Assembly: GCA_041581135.1 (NCBI GenBank)
Contig: JBFGCM010000006.1
Coordinates: forward strand, 4,482-68,481
Length of the DNA: 64,000 nucleotides
Source: Acidimicrobiia bacterium
Lineage (GTDB): Bacteria > Actinomycetota > Acidimicrobiia > Spongiisociales > UBA5794
Direction: 5' to 3'
In this document: positions 3,541-45,898 of the stretch, one piece after another
How positions within the stretch are numbered: the stretch's first letter is position 1
How the letters are laid out: every line of letters starts with the position of its first letter
Notes under the pieces: model-generated
Databases searched by the model: none
The model's input: the letters and a program-made list of their open reading frames with translations, nothing else
Told to the model about the DNA's origin: nothing
Made by a program: the position numbers and the translations under genes

Positions 3541-4788
3541 ATGCAACGCCTGGTTCTCGTGCTCTTGTTGGTGCTGACCGCGTGCGCCGGGACGGAGGAA
3601 CCGGCTGGTGACGGTCCGTCGACGTCACCGGACGCCACCGTGACGTTGGCTCCAACGACCACGTCCGCGGCGACCACGGCTCCTCCGGCGACCACGAGCC
3701 CGACGACGATGCCATCTACCACCACGCTCGGTCCGCCGGCCGAGCCTCCGCCGCTGCGGCTGGTCGAGATCGCCTCCGGGTTCGGCCAACCGGTGTTATT
3801 GACGTCCCCGCCGCGCGATCCCCGGCTCTTCGTCGTGGACCAGCCGGGCCGAATCTGGCTGCTTGCAGCCGACGCGCCGGAAGTGTTCCTCGACGTACGC
3901 GACTCGGTCACCTTTGGCGGTGAGCGGGGCCTGCTCGGCTTGGCCTTCCACCCGGAGTTCGCCACCAACGGCCGCTTCTTCGTCAACTACACCGACGGCG
4001 CCGGCGACACGAGGATCGTGGAGTTCGCGGTGTCGGCGGACGATCCCGACCGTGCCGACCCCGCCAGTGGTCGGGTCCTGCTGCAAGTCGACCAGCCGGC
4101 CGGGAACCACAACGGCGGCATGATCGCGTTCGGCCCCGACGGTCACTTGTGGGTGGGCATGGGCGACGGGGGAGCATCAGGCGACCGGTTCGGCAACGGG
4201 CAGAACGAGGCAACGCTGTTGGGATCGATGCTGCGGCTCGATGTCGACGGAGCCGATCCGTATGCCATCCCCGCCGGCAACGACTTCGTTGCGCCCGAGT
4301 CGTGGGCCATCGGATTGCGCAACCCGTGGCGGTTCTCCTTCGACGACGGCCTCCTCTATGTGGCCGATGTCGGTCAGAACGAGCTCGAAGAGGTCTCCGT
4401 GGTGGACACGACCGCCACTCGGCTCAACTTCGGCTGGCCGATCCAGGAGGCAACGAGCTGCTTTCGGCCCAGCTCGGGTTGCGACACGTCCGGCCTGGTC
4501 CAGCCGGTGATCGAGTATGGCCACGGCGGCCAGTGTTCGATCACGGGCGGCTACGTGTATCGGGGCGCAGCGATCCCGGAGTTGGAGGGCACCTACTTCT
4601 ACGGTGATTGGTGCGGTGGCTGGGTGCGGTCGTTCCGGTTCGCCGAGGGCACCGTCGCCGATGAGCGCGACTGGACCGAGCAATTGGGGAAGGTGCCGGA
4701 GCTGACTTCCTTCGGCGTCGACGCCAACGGGGAGATCTATGTGGTCAGCGGAAGCGGTGCCGTTTTCCGAATCGAGCGCGCCGACTGA
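3541..4788 (+). CDS. PQQ-dependent sugar (glucose/sorbosone) dehydrogenase-like lipoprotein
   Basis: Lipobox signal MQRLVLVLLLVLTACAG, a Thr/Pro-rich linker, then beta-propeller motifs (GLLGLAFHPEF, HNGGMIAFGPDGHLWVGMGDGG, RNPWRFSFD). Confidence 0.75.
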   Translation: MQRLVLVLLLVLTACAGTEEPAGDGPSTSPDATVTLAPTTTSAATTAPPATTSPTTMPSTTTLGPPAEPPPLRLVEIASGFGQPVLLTSPPRDPRLFVVDQPGRIWLLAADAPEVFLDVRDSVTFGGERGLLGLAFHPEFATNGRFFVNYTDGAGDTRIVEFAVSADDPDRADPASGRVLLQVDQPAGNHNGGMIAFGPDGHLWVGMGDGGASGDRFGNGQNEATLLGSMLRLDVDGADPYAIPAGNDFVAPESWAIGLRNPWRFSFDDGLLYVADVGQNELEEVSVVDTTATRLNFGWPIQEATSCFRPSSGCDTSGLVQPVIEYGHGGQCSITGGYVYRGAAIPELEGTYFYGDWCGGWVRSFRFAEGTVADERDWTEQLGKVPELTSFGVDANGEIYVVSGSGAVFRIERAD

Positions 4789-34025: not shown

Positions 34026-34859
34026 TCAGCGAGCCGCCGTCCCGGCCAGGGCGGGTTCGTCCACCGGCTCCTCCTGCCAGGCCGGGCAGATCGCCTGGAA
34101 CGAGCACCAGTCACACAGACGGCTCACCCGAGCGGGGTAGTGGTCCCGTTCGATGGCACGGTTGATGGCATCCCACAGCGCCTGGACCTTCCGTTCGACG
34201 GCATCGAGCTGCGTATCGGTGACCGGGATCTCATAGACCGTCGGTCCGGTGAGGTACATGAGCTTGATCTTCGCCGGCGTGCGCCCGAGACGTTGCCGGA
34301 TGAGCAGCGCGTAGATCTTGAGGGCGAAGAACGCCGGCAGCGCATACCGCTCCGGCGGCGCCTTGCCGGACTTGTAGTCGGTGATGACGAGCCCGTCGGG
34401 CCCTTCTTCCATCCGATCCAGAATGCCCCGTAGGGTCATGTCGCCCAGCTCTTCGAGCATGTCGAGCTCGCGATCGATGGGGTCGAACGCCTGGGGGTCC
34501 TCGATGGCGAAGTAGTTGGCGAGGAGCGTCAGGCTCTCGATTCCCCACTCTCGCTCTTCGTCGACGGTTGCGAACAGCTCGTTGAACTCGAGTTCCTTGA
34601 GCTCCATCCAGGCCTCGCGGAACAGGTCATACAGGGCGTCGGGGGTGCGCTTGGGGGCAGGTAGGTCGAACAAGCGCTGGAGGGCGAGGTGGGCAGTCGT
34701 CCCCCGTGCCTGATAGACGCTGGTGGGTTCAGGTAGCTTGTCGATGGCCCGGAACTTGAAGAGCTGCGGGCACGTCTTGAAGTCACTCGCCCTGCTGGGC
34801 GAGAGCGTGGCGAGCTCCGTCACCTCATCTGCTTCGTCGCAAGCCTCTGATCCATGCAT
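34026..34859 (-). CDS. PD-(D/E)XK RecB-family / Cas4-like exonuclease with C-terminal Cys cluster
   Basis: ATG at 34859 (MHGSEACDEA...LSPSRASDFKTCPQLFKFR). Contains ITDYKSGK and C-terminal CDWCSFQAICPAW. Confidence 0.75.
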   Translation of the reverse strand: MHGSEACDEADEVTELATLSPSRASDFKTCPQLFKFRAIDKLPEPTSVYQARGTTAHLALQRLFDLPAPKRTPDALYDLFREAWMELKELEFNELFATVDEEREWGIESLTLLANYFAIEDPQAFDPIDRELDMLEELGDMTLRGILDRMEEGPDGLVITDYKSGKAPPERYALPAFFALKIYALLIRQRLGRTPAKIKLMYLTGPTVYEIPVTDTQLDAVERKVQALWDAINRAIERDHYPARVSRLCDWCSFQAICPAWQEEPVDEPALAGTAAR

Positions 34860-34916
34860 GAGCCGATCATACGTGACCACCCCGACAAAAACCACACGTG
34901 TGTAACTTTCGAGTGG

Positions 34917-34946
34917 TCGCGAAAACAAATACTGAGTCGCGAAAAC
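34917..34946 (+). promoter_or_regulatory. Two direct TCGCGAAAAC boxes 20 bp apart, upstream of the RNA-A promoter
   Basis: TCGCGAAAAC at 34917-34926 and 34937-34946. The second box starts 26 bp before the -35 element. The same layout is seen at 37953-37982. Confidence 0.55.
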
Positions 34947-34962
34947 GAAGTATGGCTTTGGG

Positions 34963-34991
34963 TTGACGGTGCCTGGTTCCGGACGTACCTT
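34963..34991 (+). promoter_or_regulatory. Sigma-70-type promoter of RNA-A (TTGACG, 17 nt, TACCTT)
   Basis: -35 TTGACG at 34963-34968 and -10 TACCTT at 34986-34991 (fits actinobacterial TANNNT). Both hexamers are identical at the paralogous locus. Confidence 0.6.
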
Positions 34992-34996
34992 TCCCA

Positions 34997-35272
34997 CGCT
35001 TCACCGGATCGCAAGATCTGGAGAAGTCGGGCCCGCCGGGTTTGTCCCCTCGGGGACCGGCCAAGAGGCTCTTCGGAGTCACTTGGTCGCCCGGTAGGCC
35101 CACGACCGAATGTGAGGGCTTCGGCCCATACGATCGGTTATCGGAGCGGGCGCAAGCCCGTTTCGAACCGCCTTCGGAAAACGGACCCGCAAGGGAAACC
35201 GGATCTGGAGGCAAAGAAGCCCCGAGAGGGCGGAGGCTCCGGCCAAAGCTTTCTCGGGGTTTCTCTTTGTTC
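34997..35272 (+). ncRNA. Candidate structured small RNA 'A' (about 275 nt), family unassigned
   Basis: Lies between the conserved promoter and a terminator-like hairpin. Carries a series of GNRA/UUCG-capped hairpins, e.g. CCGGATC-GCAA-GATCTGG, CCAAGaGGCTC-TTCG-GAGTCaCTTGG, GGGC-TTCG-GCCC, CGGGC-GCAA-GCCCG. Shares blocks GATCGGTT, TCGAACCG, CCCCGAGAGGGC and CTCGGGGTTTC with locus B. No convincing ORF. The 5' end is estimated, not mapped. Confidence 0.55.
35220..35271 (+). terminator. Intrinsic-terminator-like hairpin plus U-tract ending RNA-A
   Basis: CCCCGAGA (35220-35227) pairs with TCTCGGGG (35252-35259), followed by TTTCTCTTTGTT (35260-35271). Confidence 0.55.
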
Positions 35273-35588: not shown

Positions 35589-36392
35589 ATGAGCTGTGTC
35601 ACACCAACAGACATCGAGGGTTTCGATTCCTATGAGCTCGGGTCGAGGGGCGACCGGCGTCGCGTCTACACCAGGGGTGGTCCTGATCGGCCGGCGGTCG
35701 TGCTGCTGCACGAGCTCCCGGGGATGGTCGAGGAGTGCATCGAGCTGGCACGACACCTGAGTGACCCTCATGACGGCCACGATGGATACCAGGTGCACAT
35801 GCCGCTGCTGTTTGGGACACCTGGTGAATCCGAGAATCCTCTCAACATGCTCCGGTACGGGTGGTGCATGCGCAAGGAGATCTACCTCTTCAAGGCAGGA
35901 GTGACGAGCCCGATCACTGCCTGGTTGGCCCGTCTAGTCCGGGAAGCGTCCACCCGTTCGGGATCCGAGCGGGTGGCAGTGATAGGGATGTGCCTGACCG
36001 GTGGCCTGGTATTCGGACTCCTCACCCAGACCAATGTCCGTGCCGTGGTCGCCAGCCAGCCGTCTGCTCCGTTTGGCGTGTTCTCGAGGAGCAAGAAGAA
36101 GAACGTGGGCCTGTCCGAGAAGGATCGCCGTGAGAACTTCGACTCGTCCACGCCGATCCTGGCGCTTCGGTATCGCGATGATTGGCGCTGCCCCCGGCTC
36201 AAGATGGAGGGTCTGGCTGAAGCCGCTGGGGTGTCGCTTCCCGAGCCGCCTGACAACGCCATCCAAGACGTGCAAGTGGGGAACATCCGGGTGATCGACA
36301 TTCCGGGGAGTGATCACGCGGTTCTCACGCTCGCACTCCACGATGACACCTACGCGAAGGTGCGGGAATTCCTCTGGGACCATTTGCAGTGA
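35589..36392 (+). CDS. Dienelactone hydrolase family protein
   Basis: 267 aa. PAVVLLHELPGM and the Cys nucleophile elbow VIGMCLTGG. GAGGA lies 6 nt upstream of the ATG. Confidence 0.7.
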   Translation: MSCVTPTDIEGFDSYELGSRGDRRRVYTRGGPDRPAVVLLHELPGMVEECIELARHLSDPHDGHDGYQVHMPLLFGTPGESENPLNMLRYGWCMRKEIYLFKAGVTSPITAWLARLVREASTRSGSERVAVIGMCLTGGLVFGLLTQTNVRAVVASQPSAPFGVFSRSKKKNVGLSEKDRRENFDSSTPILALRYRDDWRCPRLKMEGLAEAAGVSLPEPPDNAIQDVQVGNIRVIDIPGSDHAVLTLALHDDTYAKVREFLWDHLQ

Positions 36393-36547
36393 GCACCCGG
36401 TGAACAACACCAGAGCCCTCGTGGAAGCGCGGCGGCTGCCGCGCATCTGAAAGCGAGGCCCGTGGGGCCGATGCGATCTGGCATCTGGAAGGCACACCGA
36501 GGGCCGACCGATCTGAGTGAGAGGCTCCCACCCGATAGGCTGCGCCG

Positions 36548-37288
36548 ATGGACGTATACGGGCGGGTCAACATCCTCGACGGGCGGGCGGTCCGGCTTTC
36601 GCGCGGCGACGTGTCGACCGCCATCTCGTTGGAGGCCGATCCGGTCGCCCGGGCCCAAGGCTGGGTCGCCAAGGGTGTGCACCGGCTGCTGATCGTCGAC
36701 CTGGATGCCGCCGCCTTCGGGAACTACGCGAACCGGGATTTGATCGGGCGTCTCATCAGGGAGGTGGACGTGCCGGTCTTGGCCGCCGGTGGCATCCGGT
36801 CGGTGGCGGAGGCGGAGCGGATGCTGGCGGCGGGGGCGTGGCGGGTGGCCATGGGTACGGCTGCCATCATCGATCAGCACATGACCTGGGACCTGTGCCG
36901 CGATCATCCGGGTCGGATCGTCATCAGCCTCGACCTCAAACCGACCGAAGAGCTGGTCATCCGGGGCTGGAAAGAGGGCAGCGGCAAGTTCCTCGAGGAG
37001 GCGCTCATCGAGTTGTCCGCCGCCGGAGCGGCCGGGTACCTCATCACCGAAGCGGGACGGGACGCGCTCATGGAGCCGCCGAACCACAGCTTCCTCGAGA
37101 TGGCCCTGAGCTCGGCAAGCGGCGACGGCGAAGTGATCGCTGCGGGCGGGGTGCGCAACCTGGCCGATCTCGAGGCATTGCGCGCCATCGAGGTCGACGG
37201 TCGCAAGCTCGCCGGCGTCGTCGTCGGCCGCGAGGTCACCGAGGGTCGTTTCACCATCGAACAGGCCGTGGCCCTCATCCAGGGGTGA
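36548..37288 (+). CDS. HisA/PriA-like (beta/alpha)8-barrel paralog outside a his operon
   Basis: Aligns by eye along its whole length with HisA/PriA: ILDGRAVRL, LLIVDLDAAAFG, LAAGGIRS, MGTAAI, VISLDLK, RGWKEGSG, VIAAGGVRNLADL, GVVVGRE. The first catalytic Asp position reads Asn (GRVNIL). Confidence 0.65.
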   Translation: MDVYGRVNILDGRAVRLSRGDVSTAISLEADPVARAQGWVAKGVHRLLIVDLDAAAFGNYANRDLIGRLIREVDVPVLAAGGIRSVAEAERMLAAGAWRVAMGTAAIIDQHMTWDLCRDHPGRIVISLDLKPTEELVIRGWKEGSGKFLEEALIELSAAGAAGYLITEAGRDALMEPPNHSFLEMALSSASGDGEVIAAGGVRNLADLEALRAIEVDGRKLAGVVVGREVTEGRFTIEQAVALIQG

Positions 37289-37359
37289 TCGCGGCTTGTC
37301 GCGGCACCACGGGCATCTACGGTCTTGCCAAGGACGTATCTATCCGCCGAGTTGCGCCA

Positions 37360-37386
37360 GGCCTTGGTTCCGATTTCTCCAAGGCC
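37360..37386 (+). terminator. Stem-loop after the HisA-like gene
   Basis: GGCCTTGG (37360-37367) and CCAAGGCC (37379-37386) with an 11-nt loop. No clear U-tract. Confidence 0.3.
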
Positions 37387-37437
37387 CCTTCCTCGCTGAC
37401 CTCTAGCGTTGGGGGCAGGCGAGCAAAGGAGCACTCG

Positions 37438-37845
37438 GTGTCATCGACGGTCATTCCCACGTTCCGCTACAAGAACGCCAAGGCAGCGATCGACTTCCTC
37501 ACCCAGGCATTCGGCTTCACCGCGCAGGCCGTGCACGCAGAAGGGGAGACCGTCGTCCACGCACAACTGGTGCACGGCACCGGGATGATCATGCTCGGGA
37601 CAGACACTGAGGACGAGTGGGGCTCGAACGTGACGACCCCCGACGAGGCTTCCAGACCTGCCGGCGCCGTCTACGTGATCGTCCCCGACGTGCATGCTCA
37701 TGCTGCGGCGGCACGCGTTGCAGGGGCCGAGATCATCATGGAGCCCGAGGCCCAGGACTACGGGGGCCACAACTATGCCGCGAAGGATCCGGAGGGGTAC
37801 ATCTGGAGCTTCGGGGACTACGACCCCTGGGCCGATACCGCATGA
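37438..37845 (+). CDS. VOC (glyoxalase/bleomycin-resistance fold) family protein
   Basis: GTG at 37438 (residue 308 of the track ORF) preceded by AAAGGAG. Sequence VIPTFRYKNAKAAIDFLTQAFGF...YAAKDPEGYIWSFGDYDPW is typical of the VOC family. Confidence 0.75.
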   Translation: MSSTVIPTFRYKNAKAAIDFLTQAFGFTAQAVHAEGETVVHAQLVHGTGMIMLGTDTEDEWGSNVTTPDEASRPAGAVYVIVPDVHAHAAAARVAGAEIIMEPEAQDYGGHNYAAKDPEGYIWSFGDYDPWADTA

Positions 37846-37952: not shown

Positions 37953-37982
37953 TCGCGAAAGTTCTTCTTGAGTCGCGAAAAC
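37953..37982 (+). promoter_or_regulatory. Two direct TCGCGAAA boxes 20 bp apart, upstream of the RNA-B promoter
   Basis: TCGCGAAAGT at 37953-37962 and TCGCGAAAAC at 37973-37982. The second box starts 26 bp before the -35 element, as at locus A. Confidence 0.55.
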
Positions 37983-37998
37983 GAAATACGAATATGGC

Positions 37999-38028
37999 TT
38001 GACGCTGGCATCCGCGACCCGGTACCTT
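37999..38028 (+). promoter_or_regulatory. Sigma-70-type promoter of RNA-B (TTGACG, 18 nt, TACCTT)
   Basis: -35 TTGACG at 37999-38004 and -10 TACCTT at 38023-38028. Hexamers identical to locus A. Confidence 0.6.
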
Positions 38029-38034
38029 TCCGGA

Positions 38035-38421
38035 GTCGCTGGGAAGGGAAACCGCCCCAGCGGAACTCGAAGGCCCGAAAGGGTCGGCGGGGCTCGCCCG
38101 GCCCGCAAGGGGCGGGGAGTGGTCCCGGAACATGCCGCAGCCCGAAAGGGAGGCGGAGCGCCCCGAAAGGGGGCGGCCGGGGTGGCCCTTCGGGGAGACC
38201 TCGGGCGCAGAACGGATCGGTTGACCCCGGGCTTCGGCTCGAGGTCGGCACCTCGGAGACGGGCTTCGGCCCGAGCTGCGAGAGTCGAACCGGCCGCAAG
38301 GCTGGTTGGACGCTCCCGGAGGGATATCACCCGAGAGGGTGAGGGAACCAAAAGGGAATAGGGAACACCCCGAGAGGGCACGAGCTTCGGCAACCGGCTC
38401 CCTCGGGGTTTCCCGCGTCTT
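38035..38421 (+). ncRNA. Candidate structured small RNA 'B' (about 390 nt), paralog of RNA-A, family unassigned
   Basis: Dense run of tetraloop hairpins: CGCTGGG...CCCAGCG (38037-38061), three CCCGAAAGGG units, GACCCCGGGC-TTCG-GCTCGAGGTC, GGGC-TTCG-GCCC, AACCGGCC-GCAA-GGCTGGTT, TCACCC-GAGA-GGGTGA (38327-38342). Ends in the shared CCCCGAGAGGGC...CTCGGGGTTTC element. No downstream + strand gene to regulate. The 5' end is estimated. Confidence 0.55.
38368..38421 (+). terminator. Terminator-like hairpin ending RNA-B
   Basis: CCCCGAG (38368-38374) pairs with CTCGGGG (38402-38408), followed by TTTCCCGCGTCTT. The U-tract is weaker than at locus A. Confidence 0.4.
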
Positions 38422-38621
38422 GGGCCCGATGAGGCTCGACGTTTCAATCTTGGCCGACCGAGCGGGCCCGGCGCCGCCTCCCATTGAGCACCGGCATCCA
38501 TTTCAGGACACGAACGACACCGGACGAGTCGCCACGTTCGTCATCGACTCCCACGCCGGGCGATCCACCAGAGGTCCTCGGACGTCGGCGAACAAACCCT
38601 CTCAGCTGTGGGCGCTTCGGG

Positions 38622-39182
38622 CTAGGTCACGATGATTGGGAAGAATCCACGGTCGTAGGCGTCACCAACATCGTGGAAGTCGCCCCGAAAGACACATGAA
38701 TTACCGAAGTATGTCGTTGCGGGGACTCCAGCGGGGATCTCGATGGCAAGGGAGACGTTCTCAGTAGCGCCGGTCGTCACCGTCAGGCCTTCCACATCGG
38801 GCGGTCCTCCGGCGGGAGGGAATCGGGGATCGGCCGTTGAGAATGCCGCCCCGAGATCCGAGATCGGATTGGCCGGACCCACCCATGCCTGGACATGGAT
38901 TCGCGACCGGTCGAAGGGATCGGGATTGTGGATGCCGACGGTATACGAGATCGTGTCGCCGGCTGTCCGCACGCCGGTCCAGGACTGATACACGATCATC
39001 GGTGACTTGGCTCGGCCCATCTTTCGCATGAGCTCGTGGTCGTCGGGTGCACTGAAGGCGAGCCCCCTCCGTGCTGCCTTCTTGCGCTCCCGTTCGATCC
39101 GCGACCTGAGCTGCCTGAGCGGGTCCTTAGGCCGTGAACGCTGCCCTGCACCTCGCGAGGGTTTGGCGGGCTGCTTGGCCAT
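38622..39182 (-). CDS. Hypothetical protein (186 aa): basic N-terminus plus beta-rich C-terminal domain
   Basis: ATG at 39182 (MAKQPAKPSRGAGQRSRPKD..., residue 43 of the track ORF) preceded by AAGGAGG. No motif recognised. Confidence 0.55.
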   Translation of the reverse strand: MAKQPAKPSRGAGQRSRPKDPLRQLRSRIERERKKAARRGLAFSAPDDHELMRKMGRAKSPMIVYQSWTGVRTAGDTISYTVGIHNPDPFDRSRIHVQAWVGPANPISDLGAAFSTADPRFPPAGGPPDVEGLTVTTGATENVSLAIEIPAGVPATTYFGNSCVFRGDFHDVGDAYDRGFFPIIVT

Positions 39183-39346
39183 GGCAAACCTCCTTGCTGA
39201 ACCTCTGCGACCGTCACGGGACGACCGAGCCAAGCCTACGCCTCCACGCCATGGCGCCCACACCTCTCCGGCCGGCCCGAGTGCCGCCTCATCCGCCGAA
39301 TCCGCCACGGGCCCGGCGGGCCCGGCACTGCGGATAGGATGGCGCC

Positions 39347-39979
39347 ATGGCCTATTCCGCCGACTTGCTCAGCGACGACGAAGAGATCATCCGGGAGTTC
39401 CGACCTCACTGGAAGATGCTGGCGATCCCGTTCTTCTGGATCATCGTGGGCATCGCCATCATCATCGCCGCCTGGTCGGTGATCCCACCCGACGACAATG
39501 CGCTTGTCGACTGGATCATCACCGGCGTCGTCGTACTGCTGCTCATCCCGCTGGCGTTCTCGCCCGTCGTGGCGTGGTGGTTCACGCACTACATCCTCAC
39601 CAACGAGCGGTTGATCACCCGCTCCGGTGTCATCGCCCGCAGCGGCATCGAGATGCCGCTCGAGAACATCACCAACGTGCTGTTCAGCCAGAACGTGTTC
39701 GAGCGCGTCTTGCGGTTCGGTGACCTCCTCATCGAGTCGGCCGGTGAGACCGGACAGAGTCGCTTCGCCGACATCCCCGACCCCCAAGAGTTCCAGGCCT
39801 TGCTCTATCGGATCCGTGAGGCCCGCACCAATCTCCTCGCCGGCTTGGAGGCACCTGTATCCGCAGCCGACGCCGGTCCGGAGGAGCGCATCGCCAAGCT
39901 CGCCAAGCTGCGGGACGACGGAGCGATCACCCAGGAAGAGTTCGAGGAGAAGAAGGCCAAGCTCCTCGACGAGATCTGA
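39347..39979 (+). CDS. Membrane bacterial PH-domain (bPH_2/DUF304, YdbT-like) protein with C-terminal SHOCT motif
   Basis: DEEIIREFRPHW, two TM helices, ILTNERLITRSGVIARSGIEMPLENITNV...GDLLIES, and C-terminal KLAKLRDDGAITQEEFEEKKAKLL (SHOCT-like). Confidence 0.7.
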   Translation: MAYSADLLSDDEEIIREFRPHWKMLAIPFFWIIVGIAIIIAAWSVIPPDDNALVDWIITGVVVLLLIPLAFSPVVAWWFTHYILTNERLITRSGVIARSGIEMPLENITNVLFSQNVFERVLRFGDLLIESAGETGQSRFADIPDPQEFQALLYRIREARTNLLAGLEAPVSAADAGPEERIAKLAKLRDDGAITQEEFEEKKAKLLDEI

Positions 39980-44044: not shown

Positions 44045-45898
44045 TCAGACGCCCGTCACCTGCGCTTGACGCTGGTACATCTGGGCTCGACGGGTGAGCG
44101 CCACCGTGAAGGTTGCACCACCGCCGAGCGTCGGCTCGAACCACACCCTGCCCCCCATCGCCTCGGTGAGACCACGTACGATGGAGAGCCCCAACCCCGT
44201 TCCGCCCTGGACTCTCGTCTCGGCGTGGTCGACCTGCGTGAAGCGATCGAACACATGGTCGTGGAGCTCGTACGGGATGCCGGGCCCGTGGTCGATGACG
44301 GCCAGCCACACCTCGGAACCGCTCGTGAGGGCGCTCAGCTCGATGGTGCCGGGACCCGAGTACTTCAGGGCATTGGTGATGAGATTCGTGAGGATGCGGC
44401 GCAGGTGCTCGGGATCCGACTCGAACTCGTCGAGGTCGGGAGCCACGTCGACCACCACCCGATGGGCGGCCTCCGGGATGCTGTGCACCACGTCGGTCAG
44501 GAAGGGGCGAGCGTCGATGTGCTGGCTCCGCACCGGCAGCGCCTGATTGTCGAGTCGGGACACGACCAACAAGTCCTCGATGAGCACGCGCAGGCGGTCG
44601 GCCTGCTTCTCCGCAGTGGCCAACAGCTCGAGAGCGTTGGGATGAGTTGGTGCCAACTCGGGTCGTGCCAGTGTCTTGAGGCTGCCGATGATCGACGTGA
44701 GCGGTGTGCGAAGTTCGTGGCTGACCACCGACACGAAATCGGTCTTCAGCTGGGCGAGCTCGGCCGCCTTGGCGCCGGCCTCCTGGACCGCCTCGTACCG
44801 TGACATCTGGTTGAGGACGAGCGCACTCGGGGCGGCCAGGGACGTGAGCGTGTCCAGGTCGCGTGGGTGGAATTCGTTCTCTTCCTTGTCTGCGACCAGC
44901 AGCACCCCGATCTGGCGCGACTCGACTTGGAGTGGAACGGCGGCGACGCTCTCGGCGTCGAGGTCCGAGAGCAGGGTGTCCCGGATGCCGGACTCGGCGA
45001 GATCGTTGCTCATTGCCGGTTCGCCGGAGATGTAGACCTGTTGGGCGATGCCCTTCTCGGTGAGCAGCAAGAGATAGCCCTCGGCCCGCAGGGTGTGGCC
45101 GGCCACCCAGATCGGCGACATGACCTCGAGCGCCTGCTCGTCCCGCCGGTAGAGCAGTACGAGCCCGATCTTCGCTCCGACCACGTCGACGACGCGACCG
45201 ACCAGCTCGGGTAGCACCTCACTGAGGTTGCTGCCGGCGCCGATGGTGCGCGAGACCGCGTACATCTGCTCGAGCTGGGCCTCCTCGAGTTTCAACTCCG
45301 CCTCACGCTCCTCGAGCTGGCGGAGTCGCGCCGCCGCCCCTACCAACAGGCGGCTGAGCCCGCGGCCGAGGACGATCGTCGCCAGACACGCCGCTGCCAG
45401 CGCGCCTGTGCGGAGGGCCAGCTCGCCTGAGGTGAGCATCGTTTCGTCCGCCATCGAAGCCAGCAGGTAGCCGCCCACGGCCACCATCGAGATCGCTGTC
45501 AGGTAGAACGGTCCCAGGAGCTGGGCTGCCGAGAACACCACCACCAACGCGAACAGCACCACGATGGGAGGCTCGGTGCGGAACTCTTGGCCGGCAACCA
45601 TGCCGATGACGCCGGCGGACGCCCAGACGACGAGCAGCGCGTCGCTGAGGGGGTGTTCGAGCAACCGACTCCAGGGCAGGAAGGTGAGGACCACCAGCAG
45701 TGTCGCCAGAAGGCTCACCGGAATCCACACGCGGCTGTCGTCGAGTCCGTAGGTCAGGTGGCCGCCAAGAGCGAGCACGGCAATGCCCGTCCACGACAGC
45801 AAGAGGCCGAGCCGCACCAGGTTCGTCCGGAAATCGACGAACTGGTGCCGGTCCGACGAGCGCTCATCCGCCGCCGAATAGCTGTCGGTTTCGGTCAT
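44045..45898 (-). CDS. Membrane sensor histidine kinase with GAF domain
   Basis: About 190-aa multi-TM N-terminus, a GAF-like middle, HisKA SHELRTPLTSIIGSL, HATPase N/G boxes (LTNLITNALKY, DHGPGIP, GTGLGLSIV). No adjacent response regulator. Confidence 0.8.
   Translation of the reverse strand: MTETDSYSAADERSSDRHQFVDFRTNLVRLGLLLSWTGIAVLALGGHLTYGLDDSRVWIPVSLLATLLVVLTFLPWSRLLEHPLSDALLVVWASAGVIGMVAGQEFRTEPPIVVLFALVVVFSAAQLLGPFYLTAISMVAVGGYLLASMADETMLTSGELALRTGALAAACLATIVLGRGLSRLLVGAAARLRQLEEREAELKLEEAQLEQMYAVSRTIGAGSNLSEVLPELVGRVVDVVGAKIGLVLLYRRDEQALEVMSPIWVAGHTLRAEGYLLLLTEKGIAQQVYISGEPAMSNDLAESGIRDTLLSDLDAESVAAVPLQVESRQIGVLLVADKEENEFHPRDLDTLTSLAAPSALVLNQMSRYEAVQEAGAKAAELAQLKTDFVSVVSHELRTPLTSIIGSLKTLARPELAPTHPNALELLATAEKQADRLRVLIEDLLVVSRLDNQALPVRSQHIDARPFLTDVVHSIPEAAHRVVVDVAPDLDEFESDPEHLRRILTNLITNALKYSGPGTIELSALTSGSEVWLAVIDHGPGIPYELHDHVFDRFTQVDHAETRVQGGTGLGLSIVRGLTEAMGGRVWFEPTLGGGATFTVALTRRAQMYQRQAQVTGV

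Follow-up and report, generated by a model that had tools for sequence, protein, structure and literature searches.

An abundant, highly folded RNA of an uncatalogued Acidimicrobiia family and the promoter box it has in common with replication genes

The stretch analysed here (hereafter the window) comprises 64,000 nt from the genome of an Acidimicrobiia bacterium (positions 4,482 to 68,481 of contig JBFGCM010000006.1, assembly GCA_041581135.1) and contains two related RNA genes, RNA-A (34995-35268) and RNA-B, the latter predicted to be transcribed on the plus strand from 38034 to 38415. RNA-B, the subject of this report, is almost certainly a genuine non-coding RNA gene: it is an independently transcribed, abundant and highly folded plus-strand RNA of about 380 nt and belongs to an uncatalogued family that extends across an order of Acidimicrobiia. 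Direct evidence for RNA-B as RNA comes from metatranscriptomes and is new here, and the predicted transcript is further characterised by a folding z score of -5.2 and by covariation with the orthologues in two related genomes, G013 and G019.

The promoter of RNA-B contains two copies of the box TCGCGAAA on the plus strand, a distal one at 37953-37960 and a proximal one at 37973-37980 (20 bp apart), followed after 18 nt by the -35 hexamer TTGACG (37999-38004) and, after an 18-nt spacer, by the -10 hexamer TACCTT (38023-38028), each hexamer being the commonest of its kind in the family. Among 154 distinct family units that were anchored on the 3' hairpin (P4, described below) and had sufficient upstream sequence, a box, a -35 and a -10 hexamer were found in 138; the distance from the proximal box to the -35 hexamer is exactly 18 nt in 134 of these, the -35/-10 spacer measures 17 or 18 nt in all of them, and 112 have a second box, located 11-14 nt on the upstream side of the proximal one. 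The family layout may be written as two [TG]CGCGAAA boxes 20 bp apart, 18 nt, TTGAC, 17-18 nt and TACNTT, and RNA-B fits the more permissive pattern of two [TGC]CGCGAAA boxes 20-21 bp apart, 18 nt, TTGNNN, 17-18 nt and TANNNT. Based on the promoter positions (TTGACG at 37999 and TACCTT at 38023), we infer that the 5' end lies about 6-8 nt past the -10 hexamer, near 38034-38036, and the 3' end is predicted to fall just beyond the P4 hairpin. A simple scan of RNA-B with E. coli consensus sequences called neither a promoter nor a terminator; both assignments made here are based on conservation in the family and not on an E. coli-type scan.

All structural parts of the predicted RNA lie on the plus strand. 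It opens with hairpin P1 (38036-38063; GCUGGG-AA-GG-GAAA-CC-GC-CCCAGC), in which an outer stem is followed by a 2x2 internal loop and a GNRA cap, the same design being found at the 5' end of most family members. Downstream of P1, the consensus fold, the minimum free energy (MFE) fold and the motif positions delineate an array of approximately nine GNRA- or UUCG-capped hairpins (38066-38311), several of which are enclosed in the consensus fold by a long-range helix, GGUCC/GGAUC (approximately 38121-38126 with 38212-38217). A P3-like element (38313-38352; CUCCC-GGA-GG-GAUA-[UCACCC GAGA GGGUGA]-GGGAA-CC-AAAA-GGG; consensus helices 14-16) is kept in the G013 and G019 orthologues, and the RNA is closed by the terminator-like hairpin P4 (38361-38414; GGGAA(CA)CCCCGAG-A-GGGC ... 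GCUC-C-CUCGGGG-U-UUCCC), which is near-invariant in the family and whose MFE fold joins the purine run GGGAA to the U-rich tail UUCCC by base pairing. RNA-B displays the family hallmarks at both ends, namely P1 with its internal loop and GNRA cap followed by GNRA/UUCG-capped GC hairpins, and the 3' pattern CCCCGAGAGGGY...GCUYCCUCGGGGUUU with the preceding purine run; in all, 12 hairpin loops are present in 382 nt. A conserved UUUC-YCGCG-U was also observed right after the 3' hairpin, both in the window (38412-38420 and 35263-35270) and at most family loci.

Contigs of RNA-B were detected in ten metatranscriptome runs from three studies (including aquatic and marine sediment samples). They are 194-316 nt in length, directionless, and confined to 38044-38372. 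Run X7 contains a 299-nt contig (38045-38343) and run X10 a 204-nt contig (38160-38363), both with 100% identity, and the eight further runs contain variants with 90-95% identity across 38044-38372. When X7, X10, X19 and X20 were compared with 18 kb around RNA-B, nothing else was covered except by scraps of about 20 nt from unrelated contigs; RNA-A, the convergent gene downstream of RNA-B (38622-39182) and the gap between this gene and the end of RNA-B (38420-38620) were all uncovered, and in the other six runs, which were compared with 1-1.8 kb around the locus, coverage was found only on the RNA-B body. An origin as the 3' untranslated region (UTR) of the convergent gene, which had been named as a possible objection to RNA-B, is not borne out because the contigs stop at about 38372 and both the gap and the gene have no coverage. 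That the contigs stop before P4 is expected, since this hairpin is common to paralogues and species and breaks assembly graphs. The plus strand was assigned to RNA-B on account of its promoter, tetraloops, G-U pairs and folding energy. The bacterium's own RNase P RNA and tmRNA are represented in the same four runs by short conserved pieces shared with other organisms and not by long identical contigs, and for this reason RNA-B is probably at least as abundant as these two RNAs, a statement that is qualitative only because the conserved pieces of other organisms confound both calibrators. No contig of RNA-A was observed in the four runs, all of which contain RNA-B, and the two paralogues seem to be expressed very differently.

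RNA-B shows strand asymmetry in both tetraloops and folding energy. The motif CCC-GNRA-GGG occurs 81 times on both strands of the whole 3.6-Mb genome; six of these copies lie in RNA-B, all on the plus strand (0.004 expected) and none on the minus strand, and RNA-B is the only place in the genome where at least three of them cluster within 400 nt. The folding energy is -221.9 kcal/mol for the plus strand (z -5.2) versus -184.4 kcal/mol for the minus strand (z -1.9). Full-length orthologues were identified in G013 (376 nt, approximately 69-70% identity) and G019 (375 nt, approximately 67%), together with a more distant one at locus L066; as a family-wide search of 133 genomes revealed no B orthologue closer than that of G013, the full-length covariation analysis is based on three sequences. 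RNAalifold predicted 123 pairs in 18 helices from the three-sequence alignment, and 88% of the cells are paired on this structure versus 33-51% when the partners are slid. Thirty-three pairs are changed on both sides, compared with 15 +/- 2.9 in shuffled alignments (0 of 500 reach 33) and 4-9 in the slid controls, so the covariation sought by the preliminary description of this DNA is present; for P1, helix 2 has four compensatory pairs.

Natural variation in the RNA contigs and in P4 agrees in large part with these folds. Of 39 substitutions among the environmental variants, 25 fall on positions that are unpaired in the MFE fold (35% of all RNA-B positions are), 11 preserve a pair, including an A-U to G-C exchange at 38224/38245 seen in two studies, and three break one, two of the latter being located in a single hairpin with ambiguous indels. 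In the region 38131-38160 the consensus fold conflicts with the environmental variants, with which the single-sequence MFE hairpin agrees. Among 153 distinct P4 sequences the stem reads CCCCGAG/CUCGGGG in 138, UCCCGAG/CUCGGGA in five and CCCCAAG/CUUGGGG in four, and because the latter two are compensatory variants, P4 is, on comparative evidence, a true helix. A pairing between the P1 loop GGGAAACC and the 3' tail GGUUUCCC was considered and rejected, because changes in the tetraloop (GAAA, GAGA, GCAA) are not compensated and this pairing is missing from the orthologues in G013 and G019. Coding potential was also rejected: the orthologues differ by indels of 1, 2 and 5 nt and no frame is conserved, on which ground RNA-B is judged to be non-coding.

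The most sceptical explanation is that the locus contains no functional RNA at all and is a GC-rich repeat, a terminator region, or sequence that is antisense to the convergent gene or part of its 3' UTR. The missing strand of the contigs and the silence of the simple E. coli-type scan would be compatible with such an explanation, but conservation of promoter, structure and position extends through an order, covariation is present, neither the convergent gene nor the 200-nt gap is represented in the contigs, the tetraloops are strand-specific, and the relatives that keep the RNA all do without the convergent gene. This explanation has hardly any chance of being correct and is largely refuted already.

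The motifs that the preliminary description had listed for RNA-B were all found where it had placed them. The unit CCCGAAAGGG occurs at 38074, 38141 and 38162 (the third copy within CCCCGAAAGGGGG, which starts at 38161), TCACCCGAGAGGGTGA starts at 38327, the purine stretch begins at 38335 and has AGGGAA at 38342, 38353 and 38360, and there are four UUCG (38189, 38233, 38265 and 38386) and two GCAA (38105 and 38296) tetraloops. However, the CCCGAAAGGG units, which had been regarded as exposed loops, are GNRA-capped stems. The sponge role that had also been suggested for these repeats may apply. The proposal that RNA-B is a longer relative of RNA-A holds, as promoter design and 3' hairpin are common to both, and BLAST similarity between the two genes is limited to these two parts. 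Four blocks had been described as colinear between them (GATCGGTT at 38215, TCGAACCG at 38285, CCCCGAGAGGGC at 38368 and CTCGGGGTTTC at 38402); their positions are correct, but each strand of the window has 4-5 copies of the 8-mers GATCGGTT and TCGAACCG, and hence their colinearity may be due to chance. The 11-mer AAGGGAAACCG, reported as permuted, is indeed located at 38044 in RNA-B and at 35191 in RNA-A, but its structural context differs between the two.

Genes of the same design were detected in 28-31 of 41 related genomes by BLAST and pattern searches. One to three genes are present per genome, usually in tandem, and often as two or three units 300-1100 nt apart; the RNA genes of relatives are typically adjacent, unlike RNA-A and RNA-B of the window. 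Members are alike in the 5' GNRA hairpin and the near-invariant 3' hairpin, and the middle consists of a variable number of GNRA-/UUCG-capped GC hairpins. The units range from 131 to 679 nt in length, RNA-B being a long member, and the minimal class of about 150 nt consists of P1, P2, P3, an A-rich linker and P4. In species-representative genomes the exact P4 pattern was found at more than 120 loci, nearly all of them from Acidimicrobiia, Acidimicrobiaceae or Acidimicrobiales metagenome-assembled genomes (MAGs). Across 401 evenly sampled genomes of the phylum, it is present in all seven that belong to the window's own order (one of them being the window's genome), in none of 24 genomes of the other orders of the class and in none of about 370 genomes of other classes. 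Judged from this pattern, the RNA family is restricted to one order of Acidimicrobiia. Several P4-bearing MAGs are titled Acidobacteriota or Elusimicrobia (L061, L072, L075, L085, L096, L109, L112 and L120), and these are probably mislabelled or contaminated bins. Literature searches for the RNA family, the box or an Acidimicrobiia small RNA (sRNA) found nothing.

In the minimal subfamily of about 150 nt (e.g., L055, L062, L069, L071, L074, L100, L136 and L138), the third hairpin carries an invariant 10-nt loop, GGCCCGCUUU, which could be a seed or a binding site and is not found in RNA-B. Such a loop would suit a family of trans-acting base-pairing sRNAs, in which paralogues have common regulation, a stabilising terminator and different seeds, and the occurrence of tandem paralogues with identical promoters recalls PrrF1/2, OmrA/B and Qrr. 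However, RNA-B is approximately 65% paired, its unpaired stretches are unconserved in the three orthologues except for the purine run, which pairs with the 3' tail, the B type showed no single-stranded seed that is conserved, and RNA-B is unusually long and stable for an RNA of this kind. We therefore consider base pairing an unlikely mode of action for this RNA.

With regard to the genomic neighbourhood, Pfam analysis of the flanking genes identified, on the upstream side, a PD-(D/E)XK nuclease (34026-34997, minus strand) and a UvrD-type helicase-nuclease, and DLH (dienelactone hydrolase)-like, HisA-like and glyoxalase genes lie between RNA-A and RNA-B (35589-37845, plus strand). On the 3' side of RNA-B there is a gene for a 186-aa protein (38622-39182, minus strand) with an Arg/Lys-rich N-terminus and no Pfam match, followed by a bPH_2/SHOCT membrane protein gene (39347-39979, plus strand). 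The same neighbours recur among the collected loci (nuclease in 96, bPH_2 in 107), and RNA-B occupies the family position between the PD-(D/E)XK nuclease/UvrD-helicase operon and bPH_2, into which four extra genes are inserted in this genome. Among approximately 250 related loci, the 186-aa gene was found in this genome only and is, by this comparison, a lineage-specific insertion between RNA-B and bPH_2. Among 84 distinct bPH_2 genes, 81 have P4 upstream on the same strand at a median distance of about 85 nt (an inflated figure, as the bPH_2 loci were picked for their P4 content), and comparison of these loci places the ancestral site of the last RNA gene directly 5' of bPH_2. The earlier statement that RNA-B has "no gene to regulate" is thus true of this genome only, since relatives have a co-oriented bPH_2 gene shortly downstream. 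Both the bPH_2 synteny and the recognition of the convergent gene as a lineage-specific insertion are new here.

This arrangement raises the question of whether the RNA might be a cis-acting leader or attenuator that controls read-through into bPH_2 and has been displaced here by the insertion. The frequency of P4 upstream of bPH_2 and the confinement of the intervening 186-aa gene to this genome would fit such a role. On the other hand, a TANNNT element is located 5-8 nt before the bPH_2 start codon in 67 of the 84 genes (0 of 84 in a shifted control), and also in this genome (TAGGAT-GGCGCC-ATG, 39329-39349, with 6 nt between element and ATG), indicating that the bPH_2/SHOCT mRNA is probably leaderless and has its own promoter across the order, which makes a leader role of the RNA unlikely. 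Moreover, each tandem copy has its own promoter and terminator, RNA-A and other copies do not adjoin bPH_2, the RNA contigs end inside the RNA, and the choice of loci by P4 inflates the adjacency. A leader or riboswitch would be expected to have a co-oriented dependent gene directly downstream, whereas the next gene here is convergent; the preliminary description had correctly noted its opposite strand and concluded that RNA-B is unlikely to be a leader, and the data support a stand-alone RNA. Altogether, a cis-acting role appears very improbable.

The promoter box links the RNA genes to genes of DNA replication. The double box BCGCGAAA-N12-BCGCGAAA occurs in only three places of the window's genome, namely the RNA-A promoter, the RNA-B promoter and the rpmH-dnaA intergenic region, the last of which lies outside the window (G000 contig C13, minus strand, approximately 45661-45688 in reverse-complement coordinates). 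In the 41 related genomes 83 double boxes were found, and none with the reversed pattern used as a control. Of these, 60 sites were classified: 21 belong to RNA genes of the family (12 with canonical P4 and nine with variant or unresolved P4), 16 are located 316-453 nt upstream of the dnaA coding sequence, 13 are upstream of nrdJ (class II ribonucleotide reductase), three are upstream of dnaB, and seven are other or unclear; the remaining 23 comprise 20 on contigs bearing P4 hairpins and three that are the window's genome's own. The geometry of box, -35 and -10 that is typical of the RNA genes was also observed at many nrdJ sites and one dnaB site. Loci listed with the dnaA box observation are L182-L200, L216, L222-L233 and L242-L246. 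In another family of the class, with genomes of 1 Mb and approximately 30% GC, one exact double box was found in 15 of 17 sampled genomes and none in the other two, and all five double boxes examined in this family are upstream of dnaA. As the double box precedes dnaA both there and in the window's order, it is, by its distribution, an old and class-wide element at dnaA, and within the window's order it is also found at the RNA family, nrdJ and dnaB. The recognition of a candidate double-box control element common to RNA genes, dnaA, nrdJ and dnaB is new here.

The boxed promoter of nrdJ (L183, L188, L191, L192, L194, L195, L201, L208, L220, L223, L229 and L232) resembles that of RNA-B in having the same double TCGCGAAA box at the same distance to a -35/-10 pair, in the same class; it differs in that it precedes a protein-coding gene, has TAGAAA as its -10 hexamer and is not followed by a P4 hairpin, and this element is probably cis-acting. 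Upstream of nrdJ, a second promoter, TTGACGTAGTTACA..TGTAACTA, comes after the boxed one (TTGCC-N18-TAGAAA), as do palindromes such as CAACATCTAGGGG..CCCCAAGATGTTG, which look to us like NrdR boxes; TGTGGACA/TGTGGATAA motifs were observed after the palindromes.

Considering these data together, we find it fairly likely that the RNA-B family is co-regulated with replication genes. In the scheme that we propose, a putative DNA-binding factor would act on the boxes from about -58 and -78 and would couple RNA synthesis to the expression of replication-initiation and deoxynucleotide (dNTP)-supply genes. The RNA would then act in trans on a putative protein partner as a multivalent decoy or scaffold, with the conserved ends and the repeated CCC-GNRA-GGG hairpins as possible contact sites. 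Rsm/Csr RNAs, which have an upstream activating sequence in common, follow a similar scheme, although their partner is a different one. The function as a trans-acting, protein-binding decoy or scaffold is suggested by analogy, and we put it forward tentatively, as the likeliest of the explanations considered but one that we would not yet call probable. For the statement as a whole, i.e., an abundant plus-strand non-coding RNA of an uncatalogued family that binds protein in trans and is coupled to replication genes, we lean slightly towards acceptance.

Several points weigh against this interpretation. Contig depth is a poor measure of abundance, and neither strand nor ends can be read from directionless contigs. 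The covariation of the B type has low power, being derived from three sequences, and the structure comes from the same alignment. GNRA and UUCG loops are generic stabilising caps for which a role as binding sites is not required, and the threefold variation in hairpin number may equally be explained by mere stability or a spacer role. The dnaA boxes are situated farther upstream of the promoter recognisable there, and the same factor need not act alike at this gene. A more far-reaching version would regard the RNA family as the RNA arm of an unrecognised Acidimicrobiia replication/cell-cycle regulon, in which one putative factor on the TCGCGAAA double box drives dnaA, dnaB, the class II ribonucleotide reductase gene and the RNAs, and the RNA titrates a protein (e.g., a replication or transcription factor) and thereby exerts feedback on replication or growth. 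We regard this version as improbable; if true, the RNA would be a counterpart, in logic but not in ancestry, of RNAs that are needed for or gate DNA replication.

Acidimicrobiia are Actinobacteria, for the most part uncultured, that are widespread in sea water, sediments, soils and wastewater, and to our knowledge almost nothing is known about their RNA biology. Not being in Rfam, RNA-B goes unannotated in genomes and metatranscriptomes although it is probably among their most abundant non-ribosomal transcripts. The box element that ties the RNA to dnaA, nrdJ and dnaB offers a concrete starting point for studying the co-ordination of replication genes in this class, and a connection between an RNA and this circuit that can be tested.

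Comparison with known RNA families yielded no match for RNA-B in Rfam 15 at gathering thresholds. The best sub-threshold score was that of PrrB_RsmZ (20.8 bits versus a cut-off of 44, E 0.092), and at E values up to 10 only chance-level matches appeared (PrrB_RsmZ and some miRNA models). The Rfam models of OLE, GOLLD, HEARO, ROOL and raiA also gave no match. Like RNA-B, these RNAs are long, highly structured and lineage-restricted, and were found by comparative genomics with a function that was initially unknown; they have a fixed, complex consensus fold, whereas the RNA-B family has conserved ends and a variable middle.

We also considered a functional analogue of 6S or Ms1 RNA, which would be present in large amounts, associate with RNA polymerase (holoenzyme or core) and tune transcription capacity to the growth state. 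The 6S model (RF00013) has no match in the window, the window's genome or 31 genomes of the order, but this absence is weak evidence because the model is insensitive in Actinobacteria and also fails on a Corynebacterium control. Actinobacteria are known to be without classical 6S RNA, and some use instead Ms1, which in actinomycetes associates with the core of RNA polymerase (PMC9130861). Ms1 (MTS2823 / scr3559) and 6S RNA are, like RNA-B, a few hundred nt long, transcribed from their own promoters, among the most abundant non-rRNA transcripts and located in conserved neighbourhoods, and Ms1 is actinobacterial; such a function would also be compatible with a link to growth and replication genes, and the RNA family may take the place of the 6S RNA that these bacteria apparently lack. 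On the other side, Ms1 and 6S RNA form a rod with internal bubbles whereas RNA-B is an array of 12 local hairpins, and the RNA-B family varies widely in length. Identity with 6S RNA was rejected since there is no covariance-model match and both ends of RNA-B fold locally instead of closing a rod with a central bubble. Identity with Ms1 was rejected on the basis of sequence, fold and synteny: S. coelicolor Ms1 (the one Ms1 sequence used, from the supplement of PMC9130861) gave a best BLAST E value of 0.23 over 16 nt against 147 family units, it has four hairpin loops in 227 nt compared with 12 in 382 nt, and none of the Ms1 synteny genes (HAD hydrolase, oxidoreductase, beta-N-acetylhexosaminidase and CpaE) was found by Pfam among the ten flanking genes. 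We consider a 6S- or Ms1-like function doubtful, though somewhat less so than base pairing.

The closest parallel to the proposed decoy or scaffold is provided by RsmX/RsmY/RsmZ and CsrB/CsrC of Gammaproteobacteria. Membership of RNA-B in the Rsm/Csr clan (CL00106) was rejected, as its score is below the gathering threshold, CsrA is missing, and tetraloops take the place of GGA loops: CsrA (PF02599) was not found in the window's genome (85% complete) and is present in three of 31 genomes searched, although the RNA is widespread, and the loops of RNA-B are GAAA, GCAA, GAGA or UUCG and not GGA motifs, its AGGGAA repeats lying in the linker that pairs with the 3' tail. Rsm/Csr RNAs are further distinguished by their occurrence in another phylum and a different promoter element. 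Nevertheless, they are likewise stand-alone, abundant RNAs with a variable number of similar hairpins, they occur as several and sometimes tandem paralogues that share one upstream activating sequence, and they end in a terminator hairpin. By analogy, and not by membership, it is Rsm/Csr-type RNAs that best match the way in which RNA-B may work.

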